Source of the DNA: Isurus oxyrinchus
Lineage: Eukaryota
NCBI GenBank assembly: GCA_026770705.1
Contig: JANJGN010000034.1
Location: 3,844,001 to 3,908,000, forward strand
Direction: 5' to 3'
DNA length: 64,000 nt
Positions within the stretch are counted from its first letter, which is position 1, and each line of letters begins with the position of its first letter. This document shows, in pieces, positions 7,564 through 61,451 of this stretch. The notes beneath the pieces are model-generated. The model did no database searches, was not told where the DNA came from, and saw only the letters and a list, made by a program, of their open reading frames with translations. A program made the translations under genes and the position numbers.

Positions 7564-7599
7564 CTTTGTCTTTTAGGGCTTGTGCTAATTTCCTTATTT
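7564..7599 (-). CDS. 36-nt micro-exon C3, (E)IRKLAQALKDK
   Basis: cctttttttctttcag|AAATAAGGAAATTAGCACAAGCCCTAAAAGACAAAG|gtgatg. Paralog of C1. Confidence 0.87.
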
Positions 7600-7879
7600 C
7601 TGAAAGAAAAAAAGGTTAACATTAGGACAGTGCATCTGGCTTATTAAATCAAATGTTTGTAATTTTGAATTAATAATCTTGCCGGAATCATTGTGTATTT
7701 GCAACTATCTTGTCTCTGCGTTGGACTGCTCTATTCATCGGTCTTCCACCTGAAAACCTTCATAAACAGGAGGGGAACGAAGATCTAACAGCCCAGTATC
7801 CGAATTTGCAATAATTTATGTTCACCCAGCACCAAAGTTTCTATATCCTGTATTGAATGTTAATGAGTTTTAGCAGGAG

Positions 7880-8310
7880 TTCATGAACCATTACCGGTTA
7901 TTCAAAAGGTGCACTATTGCGTACATATTTATCGACTGTTCTATGTGAATAATGTTAAGATTTTGATCAGTGTTATAAAAAATGCATAAACTGATGTCTT
8001 TCTTCTTAAAGAAGGGGTTGGGCAGAATATGTATTCAAATATTAAATGGATTGTTTTTGGACTGTTGGGGAAAAGCTGCCCCATCTACCAACTGGATTCG
8101 TCATCAGAGTTCAGAAATACAGATTATTAAGGAAAACGTTTGCATAATATTTGTGAATTAGCGTTGTCACGTCTGGAATTCTTGACTTGAATTGCCGTAG
8201 TAAATTCCAAAATGCCATTGAAAGTACATTTGGAACAAACAAATTCACACATTATAAAATGAATTGTAATGTCCTTCTGTAGATCCAACACAGAACCGAC
8301 AGACAGAACA
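7880..8310 (+). mobile_element. Decayed CR1 3' fragment within intron B3-C3
   Basis: Remnants of LEYCVQF (ggtgcactattgcgtaca) and RVVxxWN (agcgttgtcacgtctggaat). Confidence 0.42.
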
Positions 8311-8426
8311 ATCCCATCCAGTGGTGTTAATTTCCATGCATATACTTGTACGAGAACTTCTACTATTTGCTTCCCAGATAATTTTGTATCTCAACAAAAT
8401 GCACTCATCATAGTTCTTATAGGTAC

Positions 8427-8453
8427 CGTCATCTTTCTGAAGAAAAGCTCCGG
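8427..8453 (-). CDS. 27-nt micro-exon B3, (A)GAFLQKDD
   Basis: ttttcttcgctttttttcag|CCGGAGCTTTTCTTCAGAAAGATGACG|gtacct. Very strong acceptor, weaker donor; paralog of B1/B2. Confidence 0.8.
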
Positions 8454-8529
8454 CTGAAAAAAAGCGAAGAAAATAGATAGCTGAACAAGGAGAAAGAACA
8501 CATTTGAAACATTTTGCACGTTTAGCTGA

Positions 8530-9460
8530 CTATTGCATGATTATGAATGACTTTGGCACATCGATGCTATTCAGAAAATCATTCCATAATCTTTGAAAAA
8601 TGCAATGGCAAAAATTACTGAAGGGAACCAGGCCCAACTCACAACATTTATTGAAATAATAAATTAAGTTTGTAATAGCAATGATGACCAAAGACGGTCT
8701 GATATTATGGTTCTGGCAATCTGCTAATAGGAAGTGGGCGGATCTTTTCACATTATTTCCAGGAATCTCCTCAGATTAGACAAAACATAAGGAGACAATT
8801 GAACAACATGTCCATATTTCGTTTCTGCGTGTCTTGAAGTTCCACATCACTTTGTAACCAATAAGGCGCTTTAGCAATTTGTTCACTGTTGTAATAGCCG
8901 TCAGGATGACTTCTATAATGCAAAATCCTAATGACAAAATTTTGTATGAATGATGCAATTTGGAGAATTTATCTTGCCGATACGGCGTTAAATTCTTTGC
9001 ACACTCAAGTGAGTATAAGCAGTCACATGAGAATCTCCCGGACAATGGCAAGCGAGTTGTCCAATATCTTGTATCCAGTGTACACCTCTCAGTAAGCAGC
9101 TATAAAATCATTAAATTTAGACATGAGAGCATTGTCATTCGTAAGAGTGTGGCACGAGGAACTGTAACTGTGGTTTTCAATGTTATTTCAATAACTGAGG
9201 ATCCAGTAAATTTCCATTGATGATAAAGTTTTCCTGATTCATATGACCCCTAATGTTGCTAATGACCCCTAATGACCCCTAAGCCAAAGGTATGCTGTTG
9301 CTGTCCATCGATAACAAGGGAGCAGATTTCATGCTTTGCCACTTTAATTAAGTAACGGAAACAACGCGCCCTTTCAATAATCTTTAGCCCGGATAAAATC
9401 CTGGCTATGGCAATTATAGCACTAACAAGTATTAGGTACTGTATGAATACCCACAACCTG
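8530..9460 (-). mobile_element. Decayed CR1 ORF2 fragment
   Basis: Reverse-strand RPVSL-like and SPG-D-like (tagcccggataaaatcctgg) remnants with many stops. Confidence 0.5.
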
Positions 9461-9599
9461 ATTATTGAGGGAGCTCATTGTTTCAGTGTAGCCAAAATCA
9501 GTCAGAAGTGCCGAAGTGATTATTTATATTGGCCTCCTCTTGGGGTCATCTAATCTCCCATATAACAGCTATCCACCAATTTGATTCATTGTACGCAAC

Positions 9600-10990
9600 G
9601 CCATGAAATGCAACTGCATTCTACAAAGGTTCTGGACTCTGAGAACATCAATACATTTACAATGAAGGCTCGTGCTCCAGAGGTGGACACTAGAAACTCA
9701 GTTGTGGCATTGTGGTTGAAACTTTGATATCGACATCCAACCAATTACAGGTCTATCGGACTACATATGATCATCCGAACTTAATGGAACTTCACGATGC
9801 AATGAAATGGCATTTACACGCAAGTGACCTGTTCACTGCTGGCCAGATTTGATTATGTGAGGTCCATTTGCCACGTTATTCATTCTAACCTTGATCCAAT
9901 TATTGACAAAATAACTGACACAAGGATGTGAGATATGTATGAATGCACTTGGACTTGATAAATCGTGGCCTCAAGCAGCTGCAGAAAAAAATGTCAACGA
10001 CAATGAAAGAAAAACTGATTGAAATGATAATTTGCAAAATTAGGAATGTTGTTGTTGGAGCCCAATGATCTGAGTCCCAACACGTGATTACGTCCTTCCC
10101 GTACATCGTTACCCGCATAACCTATGATCTTCCGACCAACATAGAGTCGGAGATGGCGATTCATGCTGATGATAGCATAATGTTCAGTGCCATTCGCAAA
10201 TGATCTGTAACTGAAACACTCCCTGTCCATTTGCAACAACACATAGATAACAATCTGGCTGGAGCTTGTAATTGGCACAGAAAATTTACACAATAGGTCT
10301 GCATGTAAGTGAACATTTACATCTTCAGAGACTATAATGCTTCCCGTTAGCATGGCATTACATTCATTGAATGTCCCACTTCTCAAAATTCTTAGTGTAC
10401 CACTGAATAGAAACTGAACTACACCAGACCGTGACATATCTTGGCTAGATGCACACGGCAGAACGTTGAAATTCTGCTCTAAATAACTGCCTTTCTTTCT
10501 CCCCAAAGCTTGTGAACAACGTGGAAGTGCAGAGTGATTTGAAATGGACTCGATGGCCTGGATTTTGCGGCTCCAAAAAATAATTAGGCAGGGCAATATC
10601 AGGACAACTGTAACAACTTTATCTCTAATTGCTGATGTGCCAAATTCAATATTCAATAATTTCACCACTAATGCTCAGGGTCCACCAGAAACCACGAGAT
10701 CTATTACTAAGAATGCTACCAGCAAGAAACACATAGGACTACATCATGTGCAAGTACCACGCCAAGTAAAATACTGTGCTGATTATAGCTATGTTGGTAT
10801 TTATTTTTTCGCTGCTGGTGCACTAAGATCTTTGAGTTGCTTCCAAACAGCATTGGGCACGTAGCTGTAACACATTGAATGCAAAATTTTAAGAGGAGTC
10901 TTTACAACCCCTTGCATGATCACTGCAGCTTAGGTAAAAAAAGAAAATGCGTTCTTAACAATACACAAATCCCATGAATTAATCCAAAGA
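9600..10990 (+). mobile_element. Family-B LINE RT-to-3' end fragment
   Basis: gctgatgatagcataatgttcag (ADD catalytic motif), ttggagccca (LGP) and a family 3' end near 10900-10990. It explains the 224-aa antisense ORF. Confidence 0.62.
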
Positions 10991-13149
10991 AAGATGGATT
11001 TTGATCATTCCTGTATACCAAATATTCCACAAGATTGGCTTCGCTGACACTGTGGTGCCAAACTGCCATAAACTTTCTTGCATTGCAAGTGTTGAAATTC
11101 AGGGAAAAACAATATAAATTAGGATAAGATATTCTTTAAAAGAACAGGGAATTCACAGTCCGTCAAACACTATCTGTGGCGGGAAAAGCACTTCAATTTT
11201 CAGACCGATGACTCATGATCGGTGTTGAAGAATGATTCAGTCCATTTAATGGAGAGTTGCTCTTCCGGCATGTTACAGAAACGAAAGTAAGTGAAAGGGA
11301 ACTAAGGACATTCGAGGTCTGAGACCTGAATTTCAGATGTTTAATATGTAATTAGACAAAATATTGTTTGGATATTTTACTTCTTTCAAAACCGTGTCAT
11401 CATTTAAAGGTCTGACCGTGGTCATGAAAGATCTGTGTTCCAATTATTATCCGGCTTGTTGAACAGCTTTGTTATATGAGAATATAATCGCTTCAGCGGT
11501 ATTTTAAAACCTGAAAAATTAATTATTGAAATCCAATAAAATATTCCTGAAAGCATAGGTGATATGATGCACCTCTAGCATACACCTGCTTGGGGGATGC
11601 CAGTGTGCTCCACAACATCCGCCTCTGCAATGATGGCTTGCAGTTCAAGAAATTTTGGTTCGGAGTGGATGAACTGCTGACCAAACTCCGAAAACCTGTG
11701 GTGCATTAATAGTTAGGATTAACTGGATTTTTTCTTTTGCCAGGAGTCAGTCGCAGCCTACTGGCTTGCTCCTTTAGATATGTTCTGTCGTCAGGGCCAA
11801 AAGGGTGGCAAAACACGTGGGGCAGATTTTGGAGTACTTAAGACATCATTGCAAGAGCGTATGACCTAGCACTGGTTCCGGAGGTTCAGGTTCATTCTGA
11901 CTGAGGGGCCAACTTGATAACCTGCAGCCAGGCTAAGCATATTGTCCATTGCACCGAGTAACAGGCGCACCTGACGGGCTGAGTAAAAAAGAAAGTGGTC
12001 CTAGTATGTTCCCAGCCGTCTTGAGGATGAAAGTTGTGTTGCTAGCCTAGTGCAAAGGATCGCTGGGCATCAACTTGGGGCTGTAGGTGACATTGGAGAT
12101 GAGGGACACGGTCCAGTTCTAATGGTCCACCTGCATGTCAATCTCATTTTACTACAATGAAAGCTTCTGCAGAGAGGGTCTGATCTGCTAAGTTTGAAAT
12201 TAAAAGGCTGCGTTGGTCACCAGCACCACCAGCGTATGTTCAGAATAAGAGCTTGGATGTCAATGAGAGCGAAAACCCAGGCAGGCATACAAATTAAAAT
12301 GGCAAAGATAGAAAATAAATTCAGAAAGTAAAGCACTCGTCTGGGTCTGCATTTTTCCAAACGCCTCTGCATTTTCCATTTCACTGCGAACTTCTCATGA
12401 TTGCAACATCACATATTAATGTAACTCTTACCCCTGCCTTCTCACTGAATCCTCAAGTTCCTCTCGTCGCTTTCTATTACAGCTGTCATCAACCTAAGCC
12501 TTTTTTTCCGATGCTTCCTTCCCCTCCATGCCCTCACCAGTCTACCCCCACAACGCCGCCTGCATACACAACATTCCCGCCATGTCTCCTCCCGTGGCCC
12601 TTTGCTACATCCAGCTCAGCCCGTCTTGGTCTCCTTCTGCTTCATTGGTCTTTTCCCCATGCACTCATCCTCTGTTTCCTGCCTTCACCTTTCCCTTCGG
12701 CTCTCTCACTCTCCATGCTAACTGGATGGGGTGAAGTTGCGATGGGAACAATTATTCGGCCGAGGGATAGTCTGGGAGGCGAGAAAACCTGAAAGGAAGA
12801 TGAGTGTGTCTGTTACGGTGAGGGGATGTGAAAAAAAGGGCTGGATAGAGCAGCTAGGAGGACCGAGGAGGATGGCAACTTTCAGGGATAGCGGGAGGGA
12901 GCGGCCTGCAACAAGCTAAGGGAGCCAGAAAATATTATAATGGAGGAAGCATCAAGAGCTAGTGAGAAAGTGCAGCTCGAGAGCGAGGGAGTAAGTTTGG
13001 GGATGCAATCAAAGGCAACGAGGATGAGGAGAGGAAAGTAAAAAAAAGGGTGGTGAAATAGTGTGGTGGAGAAACAGCGACATTACGGTAGTCTGACACG
13101 GGTAAGGTGGAGTGATTAGAAGCAGCTGAGGTTCATTTCTCTTTCATCC

Positions 13150-13383
13150 AGATTATCCTAGGTTTTCGAAATTACTGCTCGAAATTGTAGCAGTGGCAGA
13201 AATTCCCAACTCATTTAAAACGTGCCTGGATATGAATTATAAGGACTATAAACTGCAGGGCGATGGTCTCGTGCTGAAAGTGGGATTAGGCTATGTGGCT
13301 AGTTTTTTTGGGCAGCACAGATACAATGGTTGAAGTGGGCTCTTTCTTTGCCATTAAATACCTATTTTTCTATGATTCTATGG
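13150..13383 (+). mobile_element. CR1 3' end with octamer-like tail
   Basis: aagtgggattaggc...ggcagcacagatacaatggttgaagtgggctc...ttttctatgattctatg. Confidence 0.62.
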
Positions 13384-13899
13384 CTTACCTGAATCAGACG
13401 GAAGAGTTTTGAACAGGTGTCTGCAGAGCTAGAGGATATAATTGTCCTAAGCTCGGACAATTCCTAAAATCTGGCAACGATGTAAATGTTTGAAGACACC
13501 GAAGTAGAGAGGCAAATTAACTTAGGGCTGTATGCTATCGGCTACATTGCCTAAATATGTCATTGAGAAGTGCAGATATGCGTCCTTATGGGGGTATCTG
13601 TAGAAAATTTAAAACAAAGCAGCTCGAGAGAACCATCCAATTCCACAAGTATTCATGAAAGGGACATGGTGTTTGTAAAAAAAAAAAAATTATTCTTTGA
13701 TGATAAGGAAAGCACTGTGAGAAAAAAAATACGAACGAGGTGATATAGAATATCTGGATGCTCAAAATGCAATCGAAAATGTACAACATACATATTTGCT
13801 ACAGGGGGCAAGAACTCATGATGTTGAGGTATCACATAAGCATGGCTAGAAGATTTTTAACGAAGGGGAAGTATAAACCTGTAGAAAAATTAATGATTT

Positions 13900-14960
13900 C
13901 CACGTTGGCAAATTTTAACTTGTGGAGAGCCACAGGTATTGATGCAGGAGCATCAACGAATTAGGATCTATATTCATGACTTGGATAAAGAGATACAATG
14001 TATTGCAGCCAATTTTCCTGTGAAAACTAAGATAGGCAAAGAAACAATGCATGAATCATAGGCAAATGGGTGTAGGGAGCAGAAACACTACAGATCGACT
14101 ATAAGGTGTAAACTTGAAGTTACATGCTTTGGTTAACATAATGTAAAATTAGAATGTCATTCAACTGAGGAGATATTCCAGAATTATGTGGTGCAGGTAG
14201 CTTTGCTTGTGCTTGTATATGATTCATGATAAAAGTTAGCATGACATTACACCAATGCATTCGGAAGGCAAACTGACTGTTAACTTGCATTGCAAGGCAC
14301 GTGGGGTGTAGGTGTCAGAAACAAAAACAGGAACAGAAATAGCATTAAAAACTTAGCAGATCTGGCAGCATCAGCGGAGAAGAGCACAGTTGACGTTTCG
14401 AGTCCTCAAGAACATAACACGGTTTTGGTGTCAGCATATCTTGCTACAACGGTACAGTACATTGGTGACCCTGCACAACGAACATTGCACAAATTTGTTT
14501 GTCCCCGAACATAAGGGATATATTTGCATTTGCACCACTCGATTAATTCATGTCATGAAGGCGTTGCTTCTTGAGGAACTATTGAGCAGGTTTGCTCTAC
14601 AATCAATTGAGTTGAGACGAATGAGTGTTTGTTTTTAAAAATACAACATATTGAGGCAGGCTGGACAAGATCTATGGTAATAAGTATTTCTCCAAGTGGG
14701 GGAAGAAAGAACTGGGAAAACATTTTCCAATTGTGCTGTCCCCTGTTCAATACAGAATTGAGGGTGAATTTCTTCCAGTAAGAGTTATTATTCTTTGCAA
14801 TAATCTAACGCAAGTAACAATTAGTTAGATGTCATCGAATATCCTCGTATTTCTTACAGTAGCAACTAGCTTTTGAGCAACAGGAAAAAGGAAGGTAGGA
14901 ATGGAAGGAGCAAATGGAAAGTTTAGTGCTTGCATGGCAGGCAGCGTAGAACAAGGTAAA
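13900..14960 (+). mobile_element. Decayed CR1 RT/3' fragment interrupted by a Penelope-like terminus
   Basis: KFxxxTKIG-like (aattttcctgtgaaaactaagataggc), IRKAN (attcggaaggcaaac) and NFFxxRV (aatttcttccagtaagagtt) remnants. Confidence 0.55.
14317..14415 (+). mobile_element. Short Penelope-like terminal repeat (shark-type)
   Basis: aaacaaaaacagg...aaaacttagcagatctggcagcatcagcggagaagagcacagttgacgtttcgagtcctca. An older copy lies at about 11135-11225. Family assignment is from memory. Confidence 0.55.
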
Positions 14961-17929
14961 TACCAATCAGAAAAAAAGAGGCAGCGATAATGATGTAAGC
15001 ATTTTGCACATGATACCAGGTAAAGATGGCTGTAGAATGATGAGCCTAAACGTGAACAAATCATTGTACAGCTTTTCTTGAATTCGATTGGATCTCTGTA
15101 AAAAAAATGGATAGAATGGCGAAAAAAGCTGGCTAATGCAAAAAAAAAATAAAACAAACGAAATCTCTGGATAATATTTGAGATTCACAGCATGCATAAT
15201 GTTTGTTTTTGCACCATTTGGTGCTGTTATCTGAACATAGCTTTCAAATCAGTAAGTCAAAAACTGGAGCCAAACTTTTGCAAGAAAATCTGGGAAACTG
15301 TTCCATGCCATAATGCCGGTAGGAGGTTTGAACTCCCTCTCACCAACAACATTTTATTTTTAAACGTCACGTCAATGCTGAGCTTTTAGCCTGTGATTGA
15401 CGAATTCATTTTAACCACAGGCTTCTGGGATTTGAGACCTCTCAAATTATAATGTAACACACTCGAGGTGCTCGATGGTCTGCACCTGCTGCTATGGTCC
15501 TAAGCCTCTTTGCAACCACCTTTATCTAAACAGGTAAACATATACTCTGAAGCATCTCGCCTGCTTTAAATATCTAGATCCTTCTTAGCTCTAACACAGC
15601 TGCTCGCTGCAGCTGAACGTCGCTGTGTCTATTACTTTATAATAGTCTTTCTCGGTCTCTGTTATGCCTCATCATTATGATAATTATGGAGTTGACACTC
15701 ATTGGGCTGGTTGGGTGCTCAACAGCCAGTGAACGACTCGCTGGCCTTCCCAGCAGGGATTGATCAGCTTCACTTTAATTGTTTTCAAGGAGTATTCTAT
15801 AACCCTGAATGCAGCAGTGCTCTGATCTGGGATACCTCCATACGGCTTTGTTAAACTGTGGTCATACAGCTCACACTTCTGTAACAGCAATTATTTCAAA
15901 TCGGTTTCTCTAAATGGTTCTGCTTCGGATTAGAAGTCCAAACCAACACTGTCATTTACATCATCAGAAGAAAATGCTTTCTTAGTTTCGGATGAAACGG
16001 AGCAGTTCATTAAGGGCAGAGTAGAATCTTTCCTTAAAATCTATATTTGAGACAAGAGTCATGGCATAAAAGCTAATGATGGGAGCATATTGGTTATGGC
16101 TGAGTTGTAGGCGGGACGTCATACACCTTTTATCCATCCGATAGCAGAGTTTTGGCCTATTCCAAATTAAACATCAATCCGTGGAGAGGAGGTTCCATTT
16201 CCACCTTCCTATTCCATTTGAAAGTATGCCACGCAATTTGTCCCTTCTCTTGCTCCTGCTACATTGTGAGGGGGATGCCAATGTGGATTCCTGATAACTA
16301 ACATAACACAATTGCAGTTGTTCTGCAGGGTGATCACTCTCAGGTTTATCGATGAGCATTCTGACAATGCACGTTGCAAAATATAGAGTTTAATTTGCTT
16401 GGCAAATAACTATGATGATACAGCTCAATATGGCTCCCCAGGCAGAGGGGAGAAGAGCGCATATGTGTAGCGTACCTTCCCTGGGTCCTTCTATATCACC
16501 GTAGACGTGTCGAACAAACGTCTGCAACCTCTGCGCGGAGATTTTGTCTGAAGACTCCCCGTTGTAGATTCCTGCCCCGGCTCTAATCCTCGGAAAACAA
16601 GAAAACAGTCAATGGCATCATTCCGCTGTGAAATATATCTGGTGTAAAGAATGTGTGCATTTATGAATGGGTGGGGTTGCTGAACGTGAGGCTTCTTCTT
16701 CACACTGGGCTATTCATGGCATTCGATTTGCTGTTGTAGCCAGATGCATGTTTATTTATTTTTTTGCTGGCGCTTCCAAAGGAAAAATTAAAAAAAAACA
16801 ACCTGCTCAATTGTTAACTCCTGAATGTTATTAATTGGGATATTCAGTGATTTGTATTTTGGTAGGAATGAAGGAGAGATGGTTAGTATTCTTCCTTGCT
16901 AGAGATATTTACTGCCTGGCATTTAGGTCGCAAGAATGTGACATGTTGCTAAGCAGCCCAAGCTTTTACGCTGCCCAGAAGATTAGCATTAGAAAGGGCA
17001 TCAGAGTCAATGAATTATTTCACAGCTTTAGTCTAAATTTGTGGAATTATTTGTGTGACAACATATTTTGTCACACTGTCAATAGCACATTTTGTTTCAG
17101 TAAGGCTACAGCTAAGATATCTGTTCAGTTGTTGGAAAATGCAAGATCATTACACTCTGGTTAAAATACATATACCCCCAAGAACAGAACGAATGGTCAT
17201 TTCCCAGGTACTGTTTGTCACTGAATGTGCTTTGGACGCATGTAATGTAGACTGTCTTTCTACGAGGATTCTTCTATGCTGTTTATCCAAGACCCCCACT
17301 GAGCATGACTTCACCTAGCCTCAAATAATGGCCTAAAAAAGATTCGATCAATCCATGCCTCAAGGAAATGAATGTTTTCTCCTGTTGATTAGAGCTGACT
17401 TTATAGGAAAGAAATGTTTCGTGCCATAATCGGTCACCAGCCTGCGTTTTTTTTTTACAATCTTGCTCTCCATGAAATTCTATGGACAGAGGTTTATCTC
17501 GAATTTTGCTAGTTTTTTTGCACAACTAAATTGCAAGGAATCTTATATATTCAATTGCTGTGAAGGAGAGATTAGTTTCTATATATTGCTGACATTATTG
17601 CCTTTAATTTTGAAAATATCCATAATTCAAGGCAACATTTTCCCGAAGCAATTAAGACACGGTGGCCTCTGTGCATAGCTTGGTTATTTTGTATGTAATG
17701 ACGTATGATCATACAGATTTGAGTACCTGCGATGTCATTGAAGTGTTTAGCTCTTACTTATGAAACGCAAACCCGTCTGCCATTTGGATGAAGTTTGAAT
17801 TAGAACAATTCATACTTTTCAACAACTGCAATGTCGATAACAGTTCATTACAAAGAAGGCCCACTCGGGTGACTGTCATTGCTTAGTAACTTCTAACCAG
17901 AACATATCAAAGCCAATGCTTCAATATAG

Positions 17930-19200
17930 CACAGTAAGAAGATTCTCATGACAGTTAATTTAAAATCAGTTAGCGAGGTACTTAAACTTCTCCTGTTAAT
18001 TATCAAGAAAATACAATACCCGTATATCCAGTGATCCTTAAAGCATGTTTCCGTTGGGGTACACAGACTGGGTCATTATTGGAGGGTTGCACATCAACAT
18101 TCACACTTTAGAATCACTTTCAAATTTTGCATTTCAAGTGTTTATGATGGAGGGAAGGCTATCGATGAAACAAATGGAAGTAATTGTGCTGAGGACGCAG
18201 CCAAGGTATATTCACACAGTGATGGTACTCAAATAAACTTTGATCTAAGCATATCACCAGTGAAAGAAGATTTTTCCCCTGGTGATCTCAACTGACTTTA
18301 AATGCACTAGTTTTTTTTTTTCCGGATTGGAACTTTGATGTCAAGCTCAGTGACTCTCACGTCAATTCTGAGTTCTGAACATTCACTCAATACATCTAAT
18401 AAGGAGAGGTGCCGCTAATCAAGTGGAATAGCAAACAATGCTTTCTGGGCACATTGGCAGTTGAGCAGCTTGATGTGGCCGATGCACCTGCCATGCTGCA
18501 AACTTATCTTGTAAGGCGAATTCAAGGAATAAAAATATAATCGCTGTACAAAATTTTACTCAGAAATTTCCACTTCATAGGAATATTGATAGCAACTTCT
18601 GACACCTTGCAGATGATTGAAAATCGACCGATAGGCCGGCAATGAGTCACGATAGATATGTCCTTTTTTAGTTTGTTGAGAAGGCTTATGTCTTCCATTG
18701 CCAAGTTGTCACCAAAATGTTTATATTGCTAATTTACTGGTGCAGCTGAGTTAGTTGTAGAATTATTTCTTGGGCATAAATCTTCAGCGTTCTATACAGA
18801 GTGCTATATAGCATCCAATGCCTCCATGCGGCTCATGACGTCACGAGGAGTGAATCAAATTGGCTGAAGATTATCATCAGTGAATTTCTCAGCTTTAAGA
18901 GGAGATCGAGATGAATTATCTACACTTCTCTGAAGTTAGTTGTGAAAGCTTCATAATTTGCAGTAACATGCTATGCTTTAACCATTATGTTTGAAGGACA
19001 TATTCTTGGATATTCTCTGCCGGCTACATACTTAATTATCTCCCATCATGCACCACTAGATGAGATAGGACTACAAAAACTGATCTGATACACTTTTTGT
19101 AAAATCATTTACTCTGCCCGTGGCTAGCTACTTCTAACTTTTAGCATGGTTAGAGATATTTTTCATAAATTCTACTGAACATAATATCCATAATGTTGTT
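17930..19200 (-). mobile_element. Decayed family-B LINE RT fragment
   Basis: Reverse-strand remnants of RPIxxxSIIxKVxE (ccttgcagatgattgaaaatcgaccgataggccgg) and LDIK (ctttgatgtcaag). Confidence 0.55.
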
Positions 19201-19399
19201 GCTTTTGACGTTAAATAGGTTCATATAATAGATTCATAAGGGACAGTTACTCATACATTTTAACGAAGTGGTTACCAGACATCCCTTGCCAGTTTAAATT
19301 AGAGGAAGGGGAAAAATCGAAGTTTAATGGATGAAATGAAATAACAGGGAAAAAAAAAGAAAAAAAATCATTCATATATCTTCCAAGATATTTCCTTAC

Positions 19400-19426
19400 C
19401 GGCGTCTTGAAGAAGCTTGTCTAACA
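19400..19426 (-). CDS. 27-nt micro-exon A3, (V)LDKLLQDA
   Basis: ggctttattgaatttacag|TGTTAGACAAGCTTCTTCAAGACGCCG|gtaagg. Near-duplicate of A2, 18.3 kb away. Confidence 0.92.
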
Positions 19427-20688: not shown

Positions 20689-20715
20689 CTGCATTGTCTT
20701 TTTTCTCTGGTCCAG
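20689..20715 (-). CDS. 27-nt micro-exon E3, (A)GPEKKDNA
   Basis: cacttattttgtataacag|CTGGACCAGAGAAAAAAGACAATGCAG|gtatta. The K(D/E)NA end is shared with E2. Confidence 0.8.
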
Positions 20716-25982: not shown

Positions 25983-26003
25983 CTGGACTCGGTCCAACAT
26001 ATT
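25983..26003 (-). CDS. 21-nt micro-exon D2, (E)YVGPSP (helix-breaking linker)
   Basis: catttcttttttgtatag|AATATGTTGGACCGAGTCCAG|gtaata. Strong splice sites, 3n, open in phase 1, 329 nt downstream of C2. Confidence 0.75.
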
Positions 26004-26332: not shown

Positions 26333-26362
26333 CTTTTAATTTTTCAGTTAATTTCTTCAGTT
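26333..26362 (-). CDS. 30-nt micro-exon C2, (E)LKKLTEKLK
   Basis: aaccttttattttcag|AACTGAAGAAATTAACTGAAAAATTAAAAG|gtgcgg. Paralog of C1/C3, 6 nt shorter at the 3' end. Confidence 0.82.
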
Positions 26363-28750: not shown

Positions 28751-28777
28751 CAGCATCCTTCATAAGCAATGCCTTCG
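28751..28777 (-). CDS. 27-nt micro-exon B2, (A)KALLMKDA
   Basis: tcaatttaatttacag|CGAAGGCATTGCTTATGAAGGATGCTG|gtaaat. The AxA(L/F)LxK(D/E) motif is shared with B1/B3. Confidence 0.85.
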
Positions 28778-37703: not shown

Positions 37704-37730
37704 CAGTGTCTTGAAGAAGCTTATCTAACG
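37704..37730 (-). CDS. 27-nt micro-exon A2, (A)LDKLLQDT
   Basis: ttattcatcatttacag|CGTTAGATAAGCTTCTTCAAGACACTG|gtaagc. 23/27 nt identical to A3; flanks unrelated beyond the splice sites. Confidence 0.92.
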
Positions 37731-38331: not shown

Positions 38332-38358
38332 CTGCATTCTCTTTCAAAATCTCTATAT
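38332..38358 (-). CDS. 27-nt micro-exon E2, (D)IEILKENA
   Basis: gcttctgttttgcattacag|ATATAGAGATTTTGAAAGAGAATGCAG|gtgcaa. Last 13 nt match E3 at 12/13. Confidence 0.82.
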
Positions 38359-43146: not shown

Positions 43147-43328
43147 NNNNNNNNNNNNNNNNNNNNNNNNNNNNNNNNNNNNNNNNNNNNNNNNNNNNNN
43201 NNNNNNNNNNNNNNNNNNNNNNNNNNNNNNNNNNNNNNNNNNNNNNNNNNNNNNNNNNNNNNNNNNNNNNNNNNNNNNNNNNNNNNNNNNNNNNNNNNNN
43301 NNNNNNNNNNNNNNNNNNNNNNNNNNNN
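43147..43328. other. Assembly gap (182 N)
   Basis: Run of N flanked by degenerate (CTAT)n. Confidence 0.99.

Positions 43329-43388: not shown

Positions 43389-43448
<60 letters not shown>
43329..43448. repeat. Compound microsatellite (CTAT)n-(CT)n-(TA)n
   Basis: Read directly from the sequence. Confidence 0.92.
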
Positions 43449-43455
<7 letters not shown>

Positions 43456-51800: not shown

Positions 51801-52923
51801 AGACAATAAAACACAGGAAATTAGGCCATTTGGCCCAATGAGTCTGCTGCGCCATTCAATCCTGGCTGAAAAATTTTGCTAACCCATACTCCTTCCTTCT
51901 CCCCTAACCTTCCATAATCATGAACCTATCTATCTCGGTCTTAAATACTCTCAAAGACCTGGCTACCACTGAATTCTGTGGTAATGAATTCCATAGATTC
52001 ACCACTCTCTGGTTAAATAGATTTCTCCTCATCTCTGCTCTAAAAGGTCTCCCCTTTACTCTGAGGCCGTTTTTCTCGGGTCCTAGTATCTCCTACTAAT
52101 GGAAATATCTTACCCACGTCCACGCTATCCAGGCATTTCAGTATTTTGTAACTTTGAATCAAATCCCCCCTCATCCTTCTAAACGCCATCGAGTATAGAC
52201 CCAGATTCCTGTAACGTTCCTCATATGTTAAGACTTTCATTCCTGGGATCGTTCTTGTGAAACTCATCTGGAACTTCTCTAGGGCCAGCACTTCTTTCCT
52301 GAGTCTGGGGCCCAAGATTACTCGCAATATTCCAAATGCGGTCTGGCCAGAGCCTTATAAAGACTCAGCAGCACATCGCTGCTTTTACATTCTAGTACTC
52401 TCGAAGTAGATGCCACCATTGCATTTTCCTCAGTAACTACCGACTCAATATGCAAGTTAACCTTCAGAGAATGCTGAACTAGGTTTGCCAAGTCCCTTTG
52501 CACTCCAGATTTCTATATTATCTCCCCATTTAGAAAATAGTTTATGCCTCTCACCTTCCTACCAAACTGCATGACCTCACGTTGTTTCCCATCTGCCAGT
52601 TTTTTGCCCATTCTCGTAACCAGTCCAAAACCTGCTGCAGCTTCTCCGCCTTCTTAATACTACCTGTCCCTCCACCAATCTACTTCATCTGTAAACTTTT
52701 CCAGGATGCCCTCAGTTAGATCATTAATGTATAAAGTGAAAAGTTGTGACCCCAACACCGACACCTGCGGAGGTCTTTTAGTCATCAACCGCCATCCTGA
52801 GATGGACCACCTTATCCACACTCTCTGCCCTCTGCCAGACAGCCAATCTTCTATCCATGCCAGTACCTTTCCTCTAACACCATGGACACGTATCTCTCTG
52901 TGCAGTCTCCTGTGCGGCACCCT
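51800..52923 (-). mobile_element. Relatively young 5'-truncated CR1 LINE
   Basis: Minus ORFs read VPHRRL..IRVHGVRGKVLAWIEDWL, SVLGSQLFTLYINDL, LYKALARPHLEYC and RRMRGDLIQ. Confidence 0.9.
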
Positions 52924-53141
52924 TTCCTATTTCTGTCACCTTATTGCACTTACGATTAAAATATTAAATAACGTTGGTGTTAATAGAGCAGCATAACATA
53001 CATGGTTGTCAAAGCAGATAGTGAATATGCTGGGAGCCAGCACGTTAACACAAGCACGTTCACACTAACAGCATTACATTGTAAACTAAAATTATGCATT
53101 TTTAGGTTTGGAAGCAGAGATCAACATCTGACTTTCCTGAC

Positions 53142-53177
53142 CTTTGCCTTTTAGTTCTTCCTTTAATTTTTTTATTT
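53142..53177 (-). CDS. 36-nt micro-exon C1, (E)IKKLKEELKGK
   Basis: acattttgcattgcag|AAATAAAAAAATTAAAGGAAGAACTAAAAGGCAAAG|gtcagg. 27/36 nt identical to C3 at 7564-7599. Confidence 0.85.
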
Positions 53178-55254
53178 CTGCAATGCAAAATGTAACAATT
53201 CGGAAGCATATTTTGGATCACGAGGGCATCTGAATTCAACTCTTGATGATGCAACTCCTTCATCTTTTCAAGTGTCTTCCCCATTATTACCTTGGAGACA
53301 TGAGAATATTCAACAGTCTCCTATCCCGACTTCCAAATTGAATTTCCCTGAACCTTGCCTTAATTCAAAGCTCTGCTGCGCATCAAGAGAAGCTGTCATG
53401 CAATGCGTCAATATTCTGCGGCCCGTCCGAGCTGCAGGTGCAGATATGGCTCTATTTCAAAAGCCGATTGATTTGTTTTAACATTTTTCACCCTGTGGTA
53501 ACAGGCTCCATCTTTATCGTATCTGGCACTAAATAAACAGGTATCCCCGTCATTTCAAAAATGGCATTTTGTAATTCAATTATAAATCAAATTTTAAACC
53601 CCCAGCAGCCCTGCATATATTTCAGCTCCAGGTTTTGAGGTCCTCACCACTCATCCTGGCAACACTTTGTAGTCATTACGGTACTTGAAACCTACCTCTA
53701 CAATAGAACTTTTGGCTTCCTTCCTTATATCATGTTTTTTTTTTCTTAATGTGGCTTAGCTTCACTTCTGTTTGCTGTTCTTGTTCACTAAAACCGAAGT
53801 TAAGCCATCCGCGGTGTGTTATGGCTTTCAATGGTCTATTATATGCAATTATATTTTGCAGTGTAATGCTATATTTTAATGTTGCATTGACCGTTATCTT
53901 AACAACTGCTTCTCCGAGTCTCCGCTTTCTGAATATGTTTTTTAGTGAATTTTCTGATACTTGCAGCTTGTTACTCATTCTCGCTGCTAACATTGATTCG
54001 ACTTTCACATAATTGAACAATGTCCCACTTAGTAAATGTATTACTACATGCATTAGTAAATTGAAGTAATTTCAATGCCATTGCACTCGAAGAGTTGTCA
54101 AAATTGCCCCATTTTACAGCTCACATCCATTTTGGGTGGAGAATGGACCAACTTCCCAGTTAGATTCATCCTACAAATATGCATTTTCTTTCTCTTTTTA
54201 TCAAATCTATTGTAGAGTGCAATTGAGAATTTTTGTAGGTTCAGAGCAGGCGGTATTTCCCAACATCCCAATATAAGCTGCATCAGAAAAAGAATGTCAA
54301 TGAGTGCGTTGAAACTGATTGTGTGGCGTTTCTTAAATTGGATTACTAAACATCTTTTGCCCCTTCATTGTGTATGAAAATTATGCATTTTAACCTAATT
54401 CTCCATAAGAGCCTTTCTCCCAGACTCTCCGTTACTTCCCAGGTGAAAATGGCGGAAAGAAGCTGATAAGAACTCTAGAAAGCACCAGTGGAGCATTCAG
54501 GATTTTTTTCATTGTAAGATTATGAACATATGGGAACATAAATTTTGACATTCTTTTTACGCAAATGGAGATGCTTGGTAGGGCGACAGTGTTTAAGATC
54601 TGAAGAGGCAGGCTCCGCTATTAATATTGAATGAGAAACTTTGGGTGGGGAATAAGTGGTCATAACAATAAAATGCCCCAAGTCCTACACAGGGGCGATT
54701 ATCAAAGATAATCTGCCGGAAAGAATACTAACTTTGATTCGGTAGATCGCCAAATATTTGTTCAATGAGGCAGAATTTAAAGGATATATTGCCCTCGAGG
54801 GGCGGCATTAATTAGGAAAACAATCTCCTATCTTATTTAACTCCTCAACTGAAACACACCAGCAAATGAGGGACAACTGACAATACTGGTTGCGCACGAG
54901 AAGAAAATTGAATGCCTGCATGCTATCTTGGAGATGTAGGGCCTCCACTTCCTAACAGAGACGTTGGAATACATTAGTACTGTACGTAAACACATACATT
55001 AATGCTAATAAGGCTCACTTGCATTTCACAGTTTCCCGAGTGTTGCAAAGTTTGTGATGTGGAATACCATTCAGTGAGAAAAACAGAAATATTCAGTTAA
55101 ACATAATAAACATCAACGATTTAAGATTGCACAATTTTGGTTGTGCAGTATCGGGTTTAAATTGATGAATTGTCCAGTGAACTTTTCAGACTGTTACCTA
55201 GATGCCATAGCATCCTAGGTCGAGTTTAATTTAAAAAAAAACACTGACACTTAC

Positions 55255-55281
55255 CATCCTCTTTTTGCAACAGTGCTATTG
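55255..55281 (-). CDS. 27-nt micro-exon B1, (A)IALLQKED
   Basis: ctgtttgtgttttgcag|CAATAGCACTGTTGCAAAAAGAGGATG|gtaagt. Consensus donor; paralogous to B2/B3. Confidence 0.88.
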
Positions 55282-56149
55282 CTGCAAAACACAAACAGTT
55301 AATAAAAATCAATAAAAATCAGCAGAACAAGGGAAAATATTTTCCTTCCATTATATGTGCATTTTTTTTGAAAAAACAACAATAATAAGGAACATTGAAA
55401 TAGGAATGTGATATTAATTGCTAAATGGATGTAGGTAAATTGACGCATGCATCACCTTTATCTCATAGCTGTAGCCCGAAGCAATATGTTAGAAAACATT
55501 TAAGAAAAGCAGCGCCGATTACATGCGGTGATTTTTCTAATATCTAAGAGCAATGATTTTCCGAAACCTTTGTTCTCGCCTCGGAACTGAGCCCAGGAAA
55601 TGGAACGGGAAAGAACGATTTATATTTCTGCATGGTCAGTAAAACTCTCAAAATCTACCTGGCATCATTACACCCACTAAAGTTCTTCTGAATTCCCGTT
55701 GCTTTCGTTATCAATTAGGCAGATTAGTTATTTTACATGCTGTAAGCTTTAACTGAAGGGCTATGCAGCAAGTGCTGCACTACCCAGAAGTCGTACTTTT
55801 ATGGAACAAAAACGTTGGATCAACTTTTTAACAAATTTCCTGCAGGGGACTTTGGCAAACTCCTTCTGAATGAATACATTTATAACACGTGTATATTTAT
55901 ATATATGTGTGTGTGTGTAAATTTTCGACCCCCCACACATCCCTCCACCGCTAATGAAAAAGGAAATTAATTAGTCTTTACCAAATCCATGTGTGCACTC
56001 CTTGATTAACATAAGCCTTCTCACATTAATTTTCAATATGTTTCTCCTAATGTTTTCCAATATCCTCGCCACAACAATTATTCTCCTCATTTTCCTGATG
56101 TGTCCTTTGTTACCAGACTAACCTTCATTTGATAAACATGATAGTTTAT

Positions 56150-56482
56150 TGTTTTCGTGGGATGTGGGCATTGCTGGGTTGTCAGCATTTACTTTCGATC
56201 CCTGTTCAAAGGACATTTGTTATGATTTAACTATGTTAGTCTGGATTGAGGCATATATTGGCCAGACCAGGTAAGGGAAGCAAATATCCAACAGTAAGGG
56301 CAGAAGGGAACCTGGTCGCTTTTTATTACAGTGGTTAACAACGTCCTGGTCATCATTCGGCTAATCTCCAGATTAGTGGATTCAAATTTCACCATGTGTT
56401 TCGTGAGTGTAAAATTGAGTCCCCAAAGGATTAGCCTGGCCCCCTGGATTCTTCGTCCTGTGACAATACAACTCTGCCACCA
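56150..56482 (-). mobile_element. tRNA-derived SINE sharing its 3' tail with the family-B LINE
   Basis: gggatgtgggcattgctgg tail, ggccagaccaggtaaggg and attcaaatttcaccat body, ctctgccacc head. An opposite-orientation copy lies at 62690-63070. Confidence 0.6.
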
Positions 56483-57379
56483 GCAACTTTCCAGTGTCAA
56501 GGCAGTGCACTTGTGAATCCAGTCAAAATTAGAATTTTGTGGTTAATATTTTTCTTTTCTGATTATCTTATCCATTGCCGGTCAACCGAGGATCATTTCC
56601 AACTGAATATGCAACTTGTGAAAACCTGCAGTAAATCTCCTTGTTCTATGGTCTGCCCTCTGGGCAACAATATGCGTTAAACTCTACAACAACTTAACGC
56701 CTCCAGTTCTGAAGCACTCACTCTTAACTCATGCCTTGCAATTTCGTGCCCTGACTAAGTGCTAACCCTGCGTCTAAATAAATGTCTTTTCAAGCGGCGG
56801 TCCCTGAACTTTTCAAAATTCCAAGTTAATTCTTCTTCAACAATTACCAAGGTGCAGTGCAGTCTTTCTAACCCTGTATTCACCTCCAAACGCGAAGTAC
56901 TATGGCTGCTTTCCAAGAGCTCAGTGTTGAATCTTACAATGAGGTTTTGAAGAGAAGCAAACTCCCATAAACAAAGTGACAAGTATGAATGCCTTGCATT
57001 TTAATCATTTCCTATTTGACCATTGAACACATTGCACTAATTTCCCCTGCTGGAATTCAACATTGGCTTCGACCACAATCAAAAATTTTACGGATATACA
57101 GCCGTCATTCCACTGACATTCTCCGAAGCATGACCAACGCTTTAGCAGTTGCAGATTGTGATCAGTATTGATAATTGAACATTTCATAACGCAAAGTGGG
57201 TTTTGATTAATTAACGTGCTGCAAGACAGAATAGATTCAACTTATTGCAAAACGAAACGGACCAGTAGAAGAAATAAATGCCTGAGTCCTGCAGGCCTGA
57301 AGCCACTAATTTTTGCAATTTCGTATTTTTTGCATTTTGTTTTTTTCTTTGCTCTTGATGTTTAGCCTATCTGAATATG

Positions 57380-60260
57380 TAAAGTGATGTTGTACTGAGT
57401 CTTAATTTGATTAAAACCCAGCTATGATTGTGCAATATTAATTTATCAATAATGATCAGTAGTGACCTGCTTTGCTTGTTTTTTTTTCAGAATGGCCATG
57501 CACATCTGGTATTGATGTGCTATTTTTGTATTCAAATTTTCAAGATGGAACATATAAAAATAATTTTTCTTATGTTTATTATTATTTTTTGCTTCATTTA
57601 GTGATCCTTGGACTACAGGCCGGATCGATGAAAAACCTGATAGTGGTCATCGGAAGGTGAAGCTTCATTGTTGGATGTAACATGTGAAGGATGACTTATG
57701 GGTAGACAAAATGAAAAGATACGTAAGCAAATTGGAAACTGTGTGATTTGTCTAGCTTCACAGTGCCTATAAAAAGAATTGATTAGAACTGACTTGTTTT
57801 GAGAAGCGATTCTACCAGACAACGCAAGAAGAGAATAGATCCAGAAATCTGGCTGGAAGGGACAGTTCTTCGATGTCTTGTTGCTGCAGCCAGTATTGGA
57901 GCAGTCGCCAATGAAGACGAGTGGAAGGGACATAAATGACTGACTGACCTGGTGCCCACCCGTATGCTGGTTAGTGATGTGGCAATGTGTGTACCAAAGA
58001 CATTGTGACATATATGCCACCTTAGGGTGCTGCGGTGGAACAGACTGAATTACACCTATCCATTGTCCAGAGCTGCCTTGGAACAGACCACTTTGGCGTC
58101 ATTATTTGTATCTTCTGTCTTCTATTAGATTGATAAATGTAACTTGTTTCTTTCTTTCAAATGATTTTATTTTTCTTTAATTTCGTGTATACTAATATAT
58201 TGTCATTATAAATGTTATTTGATTATTACTAATATTAATATTCAATAACATTGCTGTTTTAACACGATATTTGTCAAAGTCAAACATTCCTATTACGTTC
58301 AGTGTATGGCTCTGGAACTAAGCGAGACTCAGAAAGGGACTCGCAGGCCCCTCCTATAGAAAATTGGCGAGAGGGAGAGGAGCAGGATGTCGAACATGGA
58401 TCGCATTCTGTGTTCTGGTTCAGGTTGACAAGCTACATTTAAAATTACTAACATAGTTTTTGTTCTGGAGCGTGAGTGAGAAGGAATATCCTGAAGAGGC
58501 AAATATGTTGGGTTTTGGAGGTACATACAATGTATGCAATGGCAGTCAGGGGCAGGTGGATAGTGAGCATTTCTCAATTCGTTTGTTCATGTATGTAAAA
58601 ACCTGGAAATTAATTTCCTCCCCACCACCCCACCCCCATTCCTGTTTCTGAAACTTTCTTTTGATTATTTTTTTGCGATTCCGAAAGTTATGTTCTGCAA
58701 ATCGTTTCATTTATTTAATTTTGAATTGCAGTTTTATTTGAAGAAAGATGATTCAAGAGAACTGACGTAATCTATTTCACTTTTACATGGAACTGTACCC
58801 ACTTGTTGTTTTGACTACATTTTAAGTTGTAAAGATAAATTGTGTAGTCGGGAAATATTCCAATGTTATTGCTCTTATAATGCGTATGTGTGTGAAATTA
58901 ATGAGCTTCCTTCCCTTGACTTGAATGTTGCATAAGAGTTTCAGAACTTTCACTTTACAATGAGGATTGTGATATGGATGAAAATGGAGAAGTTAATTAA
59001 ATAGTTTAAATATTTTAATTTATAAGATTAAAGTTGTGATTTCTGGCCAAAAACAACAACTTGAATAAATGTTGAGCAAAATATAGGAATTTTTATCCGG
59101 ATGCAAATTCACACATGTGAGGAAGGGGTAGATTCAAAGTTTCTTTTAATGTCAATTGGAAGAATAAAGAAAAAAATGAGCTTGTTTAATCTTGGCTGAG
59201 GAAGGTCTTACGAACGTTATGAGTTTTTGAAATGATTGGAATTTGATGTATCCTTGTCAAAATTGAAGAGAATTTTTAGAGAAAGAAAGATTCATCAAGA
59301 ACAATGAAGAGGGAAGACTTGATAGGGATTTAGTCTTGACCTGTGAAAACGTAATATTTAACGTAATAGTTCAATGATAATATTGTTGGGAAAACGTTGC
59401 ATCATGACGTGTAACATGAGCTGGAGTCAGTGATGCTGAATTTGATGTGGGTGAAAGGGAATAGCTAATGACAGAACCAGAAATTTAACATGGGGACATC
59501 ACTAATGAATAGTTGGATTTACCTATTCTGGAGGTAGAAGTGGAAAGCTTAAAATGGGAAACAAAATATATTTCATCCAAAGGGAATACCAACCAGGAGT
59601 CTGAGCTAAAGGATTAAGAAATTATGGACCATTTCCAATATAGTGTGTCATACATAGGATTGATTCGGGATGGCGCATTTTGCAACATCAATATAGCTAT
59701 CCATACGCACTAACATGTGGGAGATTACGTTTTAGGAACTCGGCTGGAAGCATATAAAAAAATGTGAGAAGTGATTATGCACCCGTGTGAGATCAGGGAC
59801 TTCACCAAAGCAACAAGTGGGTATCAGCAATCACTTGTAAATTGTGCAATGGAAGATGTTAGATTTAATGTCAAACGGTCACAAACTGCATGTATAGGCA
59901 AGGGACAATACTTTTACTGCTATAGAAAACGCATACATTCATGGACACGACAATCCATGCCCTGCTCCCGAAACAGCCTAGAAACACCACTCAGGATTGG
60001 TGTTCGCGAGTTCAGGAATACTTAGTGTCAGAATATTACAGAAAACATTGCAAAAGTTAGGATGACAGTCCAATTATCGGATTTTGTGTAAAGGTTTGAT
60101 GCCTATGCCTCACAGCTGCCACAACAACTTTCAGAATCATTATGTGCATATTGATAAAAAAAATAAAGTTGTTGATATCAGAAGTACCAGATGAAGGGAA
60201 AACTTGTGGGATTGGGACATCAATATGAATATTCATCCAGGGATTAGCATTATATCAAAT
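57380..60260 (+). mobile_element. Highly decayed LTR retroelement (Gypsy- or ERV-type): LTR-like block, PBS-like site, integrase remnant
   Basis: TATAAAA at 57768; TGGCGAG...AGGAG at 58365-58382. Stop-ridden frames at 59690-60230 give H-x3-H-x-G..CEK*, W-x-M-x-D, W...PCxRN, VFAxxGI and DWD. Boundaries are uncertain. Confidence 0.45.
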
Positions 60261-61424
60261 GTTATATGCATTGCCCAATACTCAATCTAATTGACTGGAA
60301 GTGATCTGAATCTCAGATGTCTAGCCTGAAACGGACGTTAGTTGTTGGCTTTGCAACCGACTGCAAGTGCAAGTTCGTACCAAACGAAATAATATTAATA
60401 GGGATGAAAAATGCCAGATTCGATATACTTGTTTTACTGATTTCTTCAAATAAAGATGCATATCCCCCTTTCCGATGATAACAGCTTGCATGTCCGTATA
60501 TGAAGCTGGGAAGAACGTAACATAAAGTATTTACCACAAGAACACCAAATTACCAATAAAATACAAAAAAATAAATTTCGAGAACAATTCTGCTCATGGT
60601 AACTATAAGCCTGGAAATCTGAAGGAGTAAACACACCAATTTGTAAATGAATTTTAAACCAACAAGCACAGGAACAAACATAAAAAAATCGGAGAATGTT
60701 TGGGTTTCATAGTGTATTTATGAATTGCCCTTGCGTTCTACAGAACACCATTTAATTGGCGAAATATGCATTGAATGGAAAACTCAACAAATGGCTGGGT
60801 ATGCTCCACTAAAAGCAAAATCTATTGACAAAATTTAATAATGTTAATCAAAGTCATACAACTTCCATTGACTACAGTAGTCAGAATAAGTATAAATAAC
60901 ACACCCACAGACAATTTACTCAGCATAACGTATATTTAAATACATTTCATTCGAACATTAGAATATGGAAGTTGTACCTACGACCAGAGAAAATTGTCTC
61001 CGTAACTACCGGAAATACATGTAGGCAAGTCACATAATACAAATTGTGATTTCGAAATTTATTCCATCCAATCACATGAATGCAATCCTGAGGGAGAACC
61101 CATGGGGTAAATATATTCAGTGTGGATGGAATTCGAGATGCCAGGATATGCAGACCTTAATTCTCAAAGCAATCCAGCAGGACAATTGTGGTCACCGGGT
61201 ATTGACTAAATAAGAACACAAACTCTTGAAGGAATCTTAATGGCAATTTGTGTTTTTTTTTTCCCATGCCGCTTGGCATTTGAATGCTTTCTAATAAGTC
61301 ACTTATCTCGAGTGCTCATTCTATGAGTTTGAGTTTGGAAGTCAGCTTTCCCAGTCACGACACTGCTGCAAATTAATTGTGTTAAAAGTAAAACATGATG
61401 TGTTCTAAGAAACAAATTGTGCAC

Positions 61425-61451
61425 CTGAGTCTTTCAACAACTTGTCATGAG
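61425..61451 (-). CDS. 27-nt micro-exon A1, (A)HDKLLKDS
   Basis: tattccatttttcag|CTCATGACAAGTTGTTGAAAGACTCAG|gtgcac. DKLLxD is shared with A2/A3 despite Leu codon changes (CTT vs TTG). Confidence 0.8.

Follow-up and report, generated by a model that had tools for sequence, protein, structure and literature searches.

A 475-kb array of micro-exons ending in a B30.2 exon in Isurus oxyrinchus, and its likely coiled-coil product

The minus strand of a 64,000-nucleotide (nt) stretch of Isurus oxyrinchus DNA (C34:3844001-3908000, contig JANJGN010000034.1; genome size 4.98 Gb), this whole stretch being called the window below, contains 12 micro-exons of 21 to 36 nt. The analysis showed that they belong to an array, mostly of 27- and 36-nt exons, which spans 475 kb with its terminal exon included and ends in a 521-nt exon coding for a B30.2/SPRY domain; the 12 exons are about one tenth of it. 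The array is read here as coding for one mRNA and for a likely secreted, parallel coiled-coil rod tipped with B30.2. The probability of this whole reading is put at about 0.5.

An AG...GT splice-site scan of the window recovered all 12 minus-strand exons at the lengths given in the initial annotation (eight of 27 nt, two of 36 nt, one of 30 nt and one of 21 nt; 339 nt in sum), each with AG/GT borders, a terminal G and an open phase-1 frame. Scripted joining gave the predicted chain of 113 amino acids (aa) with no stop, while the other frames had 16 and 6 stops. With generic splice scores, six candidates of 27 nt and four of 36 nt were found on the minus strand (mean of 0.57 per other length), and 7 of these 10 were open in phase 1; the plus strand gave no candidate at 27 or 36 nt. 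Seven of the 12 exons were similar to paralogous exons beyond the window, and a plus-strand control gave four weaker matches. The exons, by position in the window, were as follows:

61425..61451, minus strand: 27-nt phase 1-1 micro-exon; belongs to an exon subfamily confined to this contig strand
55255..55281, minus strand: 27-nt phase 1-1 micro-exon; strong donor
53142..53177, minus strand: 36-nt phase 1-1 micro-exon; hydrophobic at a/d, shares 27 of its 36 bases with 7564-7599
38332..38358, minus strand: 27-nt phase 1-1 micro-exon; found by the splice scan and the trained scan
37704..37730, minus strand: 27-nt phase 1-1 micro-exon; shares 23 of its 27 bases with 19400-19426
28751..28777, minus strand: 27-nt phase 1-1 micro-exon; acceptor weak, but with paralogues beyond the window
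26333..26362, minus strand: 30-nt phase 1-1 micro-exon; probably a shortened 36-nt type
25983..26003, minus strand: 21-nt phase 1-1 micro-exon candidate; proline present, likely a coil break, less certain
20689..20715, minus strand: 27-nt phase 1-1 micro-exon candidate; lowest splice scores of the 12
19400..19426, minus strand: 27-nt phase 1-1 micro-exon; splice scan and paralogue similarity
8427..8453, minus strand: 27-nt phase 1-1 micro-exon; splice and trained scans, paralogue similarity
7564..7599, minus strand: 36-nt phase 1-1 micro-exon; the array continues past the window, with the next exon at C34:3843233-3843259

As a set, the window exons are real, with hardly any doubt left. Two single exons are less secure and may be false: 20689-20715 is the weakest of the 12 (splice scores 0.3/0.5), and 25983-26003 has good splice sites yet lies under the trained model's cut of 12. 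The absence of a normal-sized exon among them was borne out at a strict cut, at which none of 119 candidates between the window exons was a strong open phase 1-1 exon of 46-600 nt; the test covered phase 1-1 only, and 182 N at window 43147-43328 were unreadable. This stretch of N lies inside the window's longest intron (14.8 kb). At a loose cut, six such exons on the minus strand against five on the plus strand equalled background.

Micro-exons of the first array occupy the minus strand between about C34:3949179 and 3478419. Seen from the window, the array starts about 41 kb ahead of it and extends to 370 kb beyond it, with introns reaching about 20 kb. Untrained generic splice scores over 664 kb of the minus strand gave 62 candidates of 27 nt and 46 of 36 nt; the remaining lengths between 12 and 60 nt gave 2-16 each, and the plus strand gave 5 (27 nt) and 7 (36 nt). 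A trained exon model, built on 66 exons from outside the window, yielded 145 minus-strand candidates over the array span, its training exons among them, 117 being of 27 or 36 nt; the plus strand yielded 23, two of them of these lengths. When 90 strong 27/36-nt candidates were taken with no stop filter, phase 1 was free of stops in 84, phase 0 in 29 and phase 2 in 52, compared with 49, 37 and 38 (phases 1, 0 and 2) in a control of 75 candidates of other lengths. A terminal G was present in 85 of the 90 unfiltered candidates and was missing from 3 of the 117 in the trained set. The degenerate pattern of one exon subfamily had seven matches genome-wide, all on the C34 minus strand at 3.29-3.93 Mb (six of the seven had been used to build it), and its reversed control had none. 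A 36-nt exon-like class with near-identical copies at C34:3786307, 3342419, 7491871 and 8006067, inside and outside the arrays, is probably an interspersed repeat that happens to satisfy the exon model.

The array ends in the 521-nt exon C34:3474116-3474636 (minus strand), which has a phase-1 acceptor and lies 3.8 kb below the last micro-exon. It matched Pfam SPRY with E 3.4e-18 (66.3 bits, cut-off 26.3), and four paralogues of it on C34 likewise exceeded the Pfam SPRY cut-off. The Pfam PRY subdomain had no match in these five C34 exons and weak sub-cut-off matches in two relatives; even so, the B30.2 profile aligned over the full B30.2 of BTN3A1, and its best solved-structure relatives were BTN3A1 (E 3.8e-29) and TRIM21. 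A PRY family search of the genome gave no C34 match among the 150 scored of 313, because this B30.2 is divergent. Further exons of this B30.2 subfamily were not found within the first array. AlphaFold2 on a five-sequence B30.2 alignment gave a mean pLDDT (predicted local distance difference test) of 44.8, and this model was set aside. Inspection of the flanks for domain exons, as the initial annotation had advised, gave the B30.2 exon. The earlier description of a gene made entirely of micro-exons fits the window alone, the treatment of the 12 exons as a unit was superseded by the far longer array, and a type II stalk carrying a lectin gives way to B30.2 as the terminal domain. The window exons and the terminal B30.2 exon very probably form one gene.

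The chain translated from the array, 1,188 residues long, had one junction stop, which came from a candidate without a terminal G. Its hydrophobic residues showed a period peak at 3.5 (4.55; 0.9 in one shuffle). In the 36-nt exons (n=45), a large hydrophobic residue or Cys occupied residue 2 in 91%, residue 5 in 91%, residue 9 in 84% and residue 12 in 42%; residue 5 was Cys in 19 and Leu in 18 of the 45. In the 27-nt exons (n=72), residue 4 was hydrophobic in 75%. One 36-nt plus one 27-nt exon gives 21 residues, i.e., three heptads, with hydrophobic residues at heptad positions a, d, a, d, a, and two 36-nt exons were adjacent 3 times, against 17 in shuffles (none of 5,000 as low). The part in the window had three 27-nt exons per 36-nt exon and a hydrophobic period peak of 3.6-3.7.

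A structure prediction was made for two copies of residues 375-520 of the Callorhinchus milii (elephant shark) relative XP_042192744.1. It gave an in-register parallel dimer with a score of 0.43 (best of three controls 0.00), with at least 93% of contacts agreeing between runs and pLDDT of at least 82. In microbes, 21 of 30 solved pairs and none of 23 single chains came up to the mark for this score; in eukaryotes, 17 of 29 solved pairs (7 of 16 in animals) and none of 30 single chains did. The prediction concerns a piece of a relative in the dimer state alone, and as coiled coils are well known, the pass may reflect prior knowledge in the predictor. All four Cys of the piece lay at the predicted interface, two of them among the closest cross-chain pairs.

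Four relatives of the terminal exon, with about 44% identity, were found on C34 at 2.71 Mb (minus strand) and at 4.82, 6.40 and 7.50 Mb (plus strand), and two more, with about 33% identity, on C21 at 89.72 and 91.35 Mb. Micro-exons lay directly upstream on the correct strand of all four C34 copies, several in shared order, and of both C21 copies. Five arrays, each ending in a related B30.2 exon, span about 4.8 Mb of C34. The second begins 44 kb below the first B30.2 exon, with 50 candidates (45 of 27/36 nt) in 237 kb and 6 (3) on the plus strand. The window-type module, with three 27-nt exons per 36-nt exon, also opens this second array right past the first B30.2 exon, as duplication of whole genes would lead one to expect. 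The third runs on the plus strand from about 4.01 Mb, head-to-head with the first. Between these two arrays lie two long inverted-repeat pairs, C34:3953800-3956300 and 3993900-3996000, and 328 nt before the third array's first exon is a possible ATG exon with a hydrophobic start (C34:4009851-4009938, plus strand), which could equally be a 39-nt internal exon.

Ten-kb samples between the B30.2 exons held 27/36-nt exons on the expected strand in 8 of 9 cases; the mid-array sample at 4.40 Mb had no exon candidate. A 9-kb sample beyond the cluster, at 8.0 Mb, held a 39-nt candidate and a probable repeat only. Samples from the two largest intervals (1.6 and 1.1 Mb) had 3, 2, 3 and 4, 7 exons per 10 kb, respectively. 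Extrapolation from these five samples suggests that the two largest arrays may have several hundred exons each, if each is one gene, perhaps as many as titin or more. On C21, more than 100 PRY/B30.2 exons are clustered at 82-118 Mb, and both C21 copies lie inside this cluster, a hint at the origin of the clade.

The best match in the databases was Scyliorhinus canicula XP_038668997.1 ('TRIM39-like', 358 aa), with 72% identity over B30.2. Just before B30.2 it matched four of the last micro-exons in the same order (ranks 1, 2, 4 and 10 of 25 rows), and its first 120 residues look like a translated retroelement. Further single-domain matches came from a profile search of 1.84 billion proteins. 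Among them, the C. milii protein XP_042192744.1 ('nuclear-pore anchor-like') has 1,697 aa, with a coil carrying eight E-L/I-x-x-C motifs, and B30.2. The other relatives were C. milii XP_042191567.1, Narcine bancroftii XP_069775385.1, S. canicula XP_038672308.1, Leucoraja erinacea XP_055510696.1, Cetorhinus maximus XP_078422387.1 (93% to one C21 copy) and the partial Hemiscyllium ocellatum XP_060706632.1. Among the seven database models of the clade (Hemiscyllium excluded), six had a coil upstream of B30.2; most were short or partial, and the names were misleading ('TRIM39-like', 'TRIM69-like' and 'A33-like' occurred). Pfam analysis of six relatives detected SPRY, together with sub-threshold PRY or a spurious coil family, and nothing else.

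In a tree of 69 B30.2 rows (midpoint root), seven Isurus copies and seven relatives from sharks, skates, rays and the elephant shark formed one clade (100/100), set apart by a long branch from the other 55 rows, of TRIM and butyrophilin type, which were best-scoring matches only; isoforms, the partial Hemiscyllium model, one Logan row and lower-scoring matches were excluded. The Isurus gene was sister to the catshark model (100/100). Among nine isoform pairs, three differed by exactly 9 residues (one each in C. milii, S. canicula and Narcine), a fourth included a 9-residue block, and the rest differed by 6, 7, 16, 18 or 25 residues or at the start. Two database versions of XP_042192744.1 had 15 differing blocks, 11 of them of 9 or 12 residues. 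These 9- and 12-residue steps point to 27- and 36-nt exons in the relatives as well.

Searches for longer relatives came up empty for the catshark protein, which is weak evidence, and with the elephant-shark protein they returned nothing but an older version of that entry. The ESM Atlas holds two chordate clusters of long coil-plus-SPRY proteins, of 1,579 aa (137 members, score 0.92) and 1,277 aa (55 members, 0.90); the design may therefore not be confined to cartilaginous fishes. A full-text literature search, judged by title and abstract opening, gave no paper on such a family, most subscription journals lying outside its scope. In the databases the family is present only as mis-named fragments or uncharacterised models. 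The suggestion of a hidden, badly annotated cartilaginous-fish gene was well founded, as the closest model, XP_038668997.1, retains the last few micro-exons only; 'undescribed' applies to the literature searched and no longer to the databases, in which automatic models of the relatives stand under misleading names.

Domains other than B30.2 were sought in C34:3194001-4058000 (864 kb), which takes in the whole first array and 109 kb upstream. At E 0.05, tblastn with five Ig-bearing N-terminal queries gave no immunoglobulin (Ig)-V or Ig-C exon, and four RING-bearing queries gave no RING or B-box; at the protein level and the same database size, these queries found other such proteins at E 1e-14 or better. 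Ig, RING and B-box were also absent from the six relatives by Pfam. The gene is therefore filed as neither a butyrophilin, a BG nor a TRIM gene; the earlier lead to butyrophilin/BG was close to the mark in view of the B30.2 end, although a conventional tail of that kind is not supported. A genome search with a butyrophilin-like protein gave 107 matches, none of them on C34. Every match fell in the B30.2 part of the query, and so the search was no test of Ig exons. The array flanks yielded no candidate for a transmembrane exon, but no first exon was found there either, and the start of one relative could be an anchor. A coil of the PLVAP/tetherin type (type II) was set aside after a strict first look, as its PF06637 matches lay on C12 and not on C34.

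The elephant-shark and little-skate models have a hydrophobic start and no later membrane segment, and that of the little skate looks like a cleavable signal. The B30.2 domains of the clade contained a mean of 0.64 Cys, against 2.38 in 155 other domains. Secretion is somewhat favoured over a cytosolic location because of these two hydrophobic starts, the Cys at the core position and the Cys-poor B30.2. For the first exon itself, tblastn with the relatives' N-termini gave nothing above background, and what looked like a signal exon at C34:3478419 turned out to be a 27-nt micro-exon whose intron is T-rich.

Under the preferred reading, more than 100 phase-1 exons of 27/36 nt and the B30.2 exon would be spliced into one mRNA. 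Its product is a predicted parallel two-chain coiled-coil rod of about 1,200-1,400 residues with paired B30.2 heads; at the established 0.15 nm per residue, the rod would be about 200 nm long. The position-5 Cys of many 36-nt exons may cross-link the two chains, and a signal peptide, as in the two database relatives, would direct export. The rod may act as a spacer or fibre presenting the paired B30.2 heads to a ligand. As the phase is uniform, exons can be duplicated or skipped without a frameshift, and rod length would be tuned through exon duplication in evolution and exon skipping in isoforms. By arithmetic, a skipped pair preserves the heptad register and a single skipped exon shifts it. 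The likely origin would be a butyrophilin-type gene in which the Ig and membrane exons were lost and the small heptad exons amplified. The widest proposal, an ancient cartilaginous-fish family of secreted, disulfide-linked, B30.2-tipped coil fibres, encoded here by a 4.8-Mb cluster of five genes made almost wholly of 27/36-nt exons and with length set by exon skipping, is tentative, and as a whole we rather doubt it.

Several results weigh against a single long, secreted protein. The 113 aa from the window had no significant match to the relatives (best E 0.01 in a seven-sequence database), and the whole chain was only 26% identical to the elephant-shark coil (E 1e-12, partly compositional). 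In the nearest paralogous exon pairs, synonymous changes were 62 of 237 single changes (0.26, neutral expectation 0.257), which shows no purifying selection; changes were mildly enriched at third positions (165 vs 125 and 119, p 0.01). Constraint on the sequence thus appears loose, whereas exon length, phase and the core pattern have been preserved; paralogues alone do not separate decay from positive selection. No first coding exon turned up: candidates resembling a signal occurred at 3.7-11.4 per 100 kb against 5.1-6.3 in controls, and nucleotide and protein comparison of three 5' regions gave no conserved exon, only retroelement-like and inverted-repeat matches. Hydrophobic starts in automatic models can be translated intron, as is likely for Hemiscyllium, and four of the six distinct coil-bearing relatives (Hemiscyllium excluded) had no such start and may be 5'-partial.

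The strongest rival keeps the same rod-plus-B30.2 protein and places it inside the cell, either membrane-bound by an uncleaved N-terminal anchor or soluble in the cytosol. There it would serve as a tether in the cytoskeleton or in trafficking and its B30.2 as a cytosolic sensor, in the manner of a BG tail, zipper protein or enterophilin. We regard this as the less probable location. B30.2 domains of butyrophilins and TRIMs are cytosolic, and the best solved relatives belong to these two groups. The hydrophobic start of the C. milii protein is followed by a basic run, which fits an uncleaved membrane anchor and a cytosolic rod equally well, and N-glycosylation sequons were not enriched in the clade's B30.2 (observed/expected 1.0). 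BG tails, moreover, are cytosolic coiled coils from 21-nt exons as described in PMC5938342. The signal-like start of the skate model, the concentration of Cys at one core position and the Cys-poor B30.2 speak for secretion instead. The elephant-shark protein adds what we take to be a furin-like basic site near residue 60 and a Thr/Ser/Asp/Pro-rich 8-residue tandem repeat that interrupts the coil at about 900-1010.

Other rivals concern the transcript. The window exons might be real and belong to a separate, shorter one (a BG-like coil without B30.2, or tandem genes), since their joining to the B30.2 exon is inferred and introns of up to about 20 kb could hide terminal or first exons. A search of sequencing runs with window 53001-61500 listed no RNA match, which counts neither for nor against expression. 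The window exons form a distinct module by exon ratio and period, and the family does include shorter genes, several relatives having only 202-460 aa. A separate transcript is unlikely, however, given the unbroken single strand and phase down to the B30.2 exon, the same module at the opening of the next array, and the single 1,697-aa model in the elephant shark. Still less probable is a decaying or rarely used exon bank, of which only a few exons near the B30.2 exon reach mRNA. The neutral-like synonymous fraction and the mostly short database models would suit it; the phase-1 openness and terminal G of the unfiltered candidates, the intact heptad pattern, and the lengths and splice sites retained despite wide sequence divergence would not. 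As an explanation of the whole set, chance AG/GT-bounded stretches are refuted. Plus-strand controls do contain single short candidates, and one 36-nt class is probably a repeat, but the excess by length and strand, the subfamily pattern, the trained scan, the heptad statistics and the open phase 1 stand together against chance.

A few further features lie within or near the first array. In the window, open frames at 2627-3058, 9994-10674 and 52040-52354 (all minus strand) resemble antisense or decayed remnants of long interspersed nuclear elements or reverse transcriptase. Within an array intron on the opposite strand, C34:3913815-3914411 (plus) is an open frame of 199 aa whose C-terminal part includes a hydrophobic stretch and which resembles a retroviral envelope remnant. 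Near-identical reverse-transcriptase-like fragments of one retroelement family occur at C34:3962957, 3498557, 3487977 and 3428286 (minus).

If the preferred reading is true, this would be among the most exon-rich kinds of vertebrate gene, with a protein geometry set by exon length (27+36 nt = three heptads). It would account for several Mb of seemingly empty shark sequence and show why current models are truncated or mis-named. It would also offer a natural test system for non-neural micro-exon splicing across kilobase introns and for B30.2 evolution near the origin of jawed-vertebrate immunity.

Comparison with known systems showed partial likeness to several. Guinea pig enterophilins, cytosolic proteins of enterocytes, have a long leucine-zipper run of about 45 heptads and B30.2 and are not known to carry Ig or RING; the number of heptads and the location set them apart. 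Schistosoma micro-exon genes share the many short symmetric exons and in-frame skipping, but encode small proteins that are not known to have a long coil or B30.2, and no homology is claimed. TRIM39, TRIM69, A33 and finTRIM likewise have a coiled coil followed by B30.2, whereas RING and B-box are missing from the locus and the six relatives. B30.2 is described as a single-exon domain that occurs in TRIMs, butyrophilin and stonustoxin (PMC2657112), and enterophilin-1 is reported to bind sorting nexin 1 (PMC13749957).

Butyrophilins (BTN/BTNL) are similar in that small phase-1 heptad exons precede a B30.2 encoded by one exon, with BTN3A1 as the best solved match; in mammals they are described as having few heptads and typically a B30.2 end (PMC5938342). 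The shark locus differs from them by its lack of an Ig-V/Ig-C exon in 864 kb, a heptad part of about 1,200 residues where theirs has a few repeats, and a B30.2 clade of its own. Chicken BG genes, including the zipper protein, resemble the array in building a long coil from many tiny in-frame exons with a split first codon; in the account of PMC5938342, BG tails have many 21-nt heptad exons after the Ig-V and membrane exons, their number varying from 27 to 37. In contrast to BG, which has Ig-V and a transmembrane segment and no B30.2, the shark array has a 27+36-nt unit, more than 100 exons and B30.2, and no Ig was found. The putative gene would thus unite two features known apart, the micro-exon coil of the BG type and the B30.2 head of butyrophilins and TRIMs.

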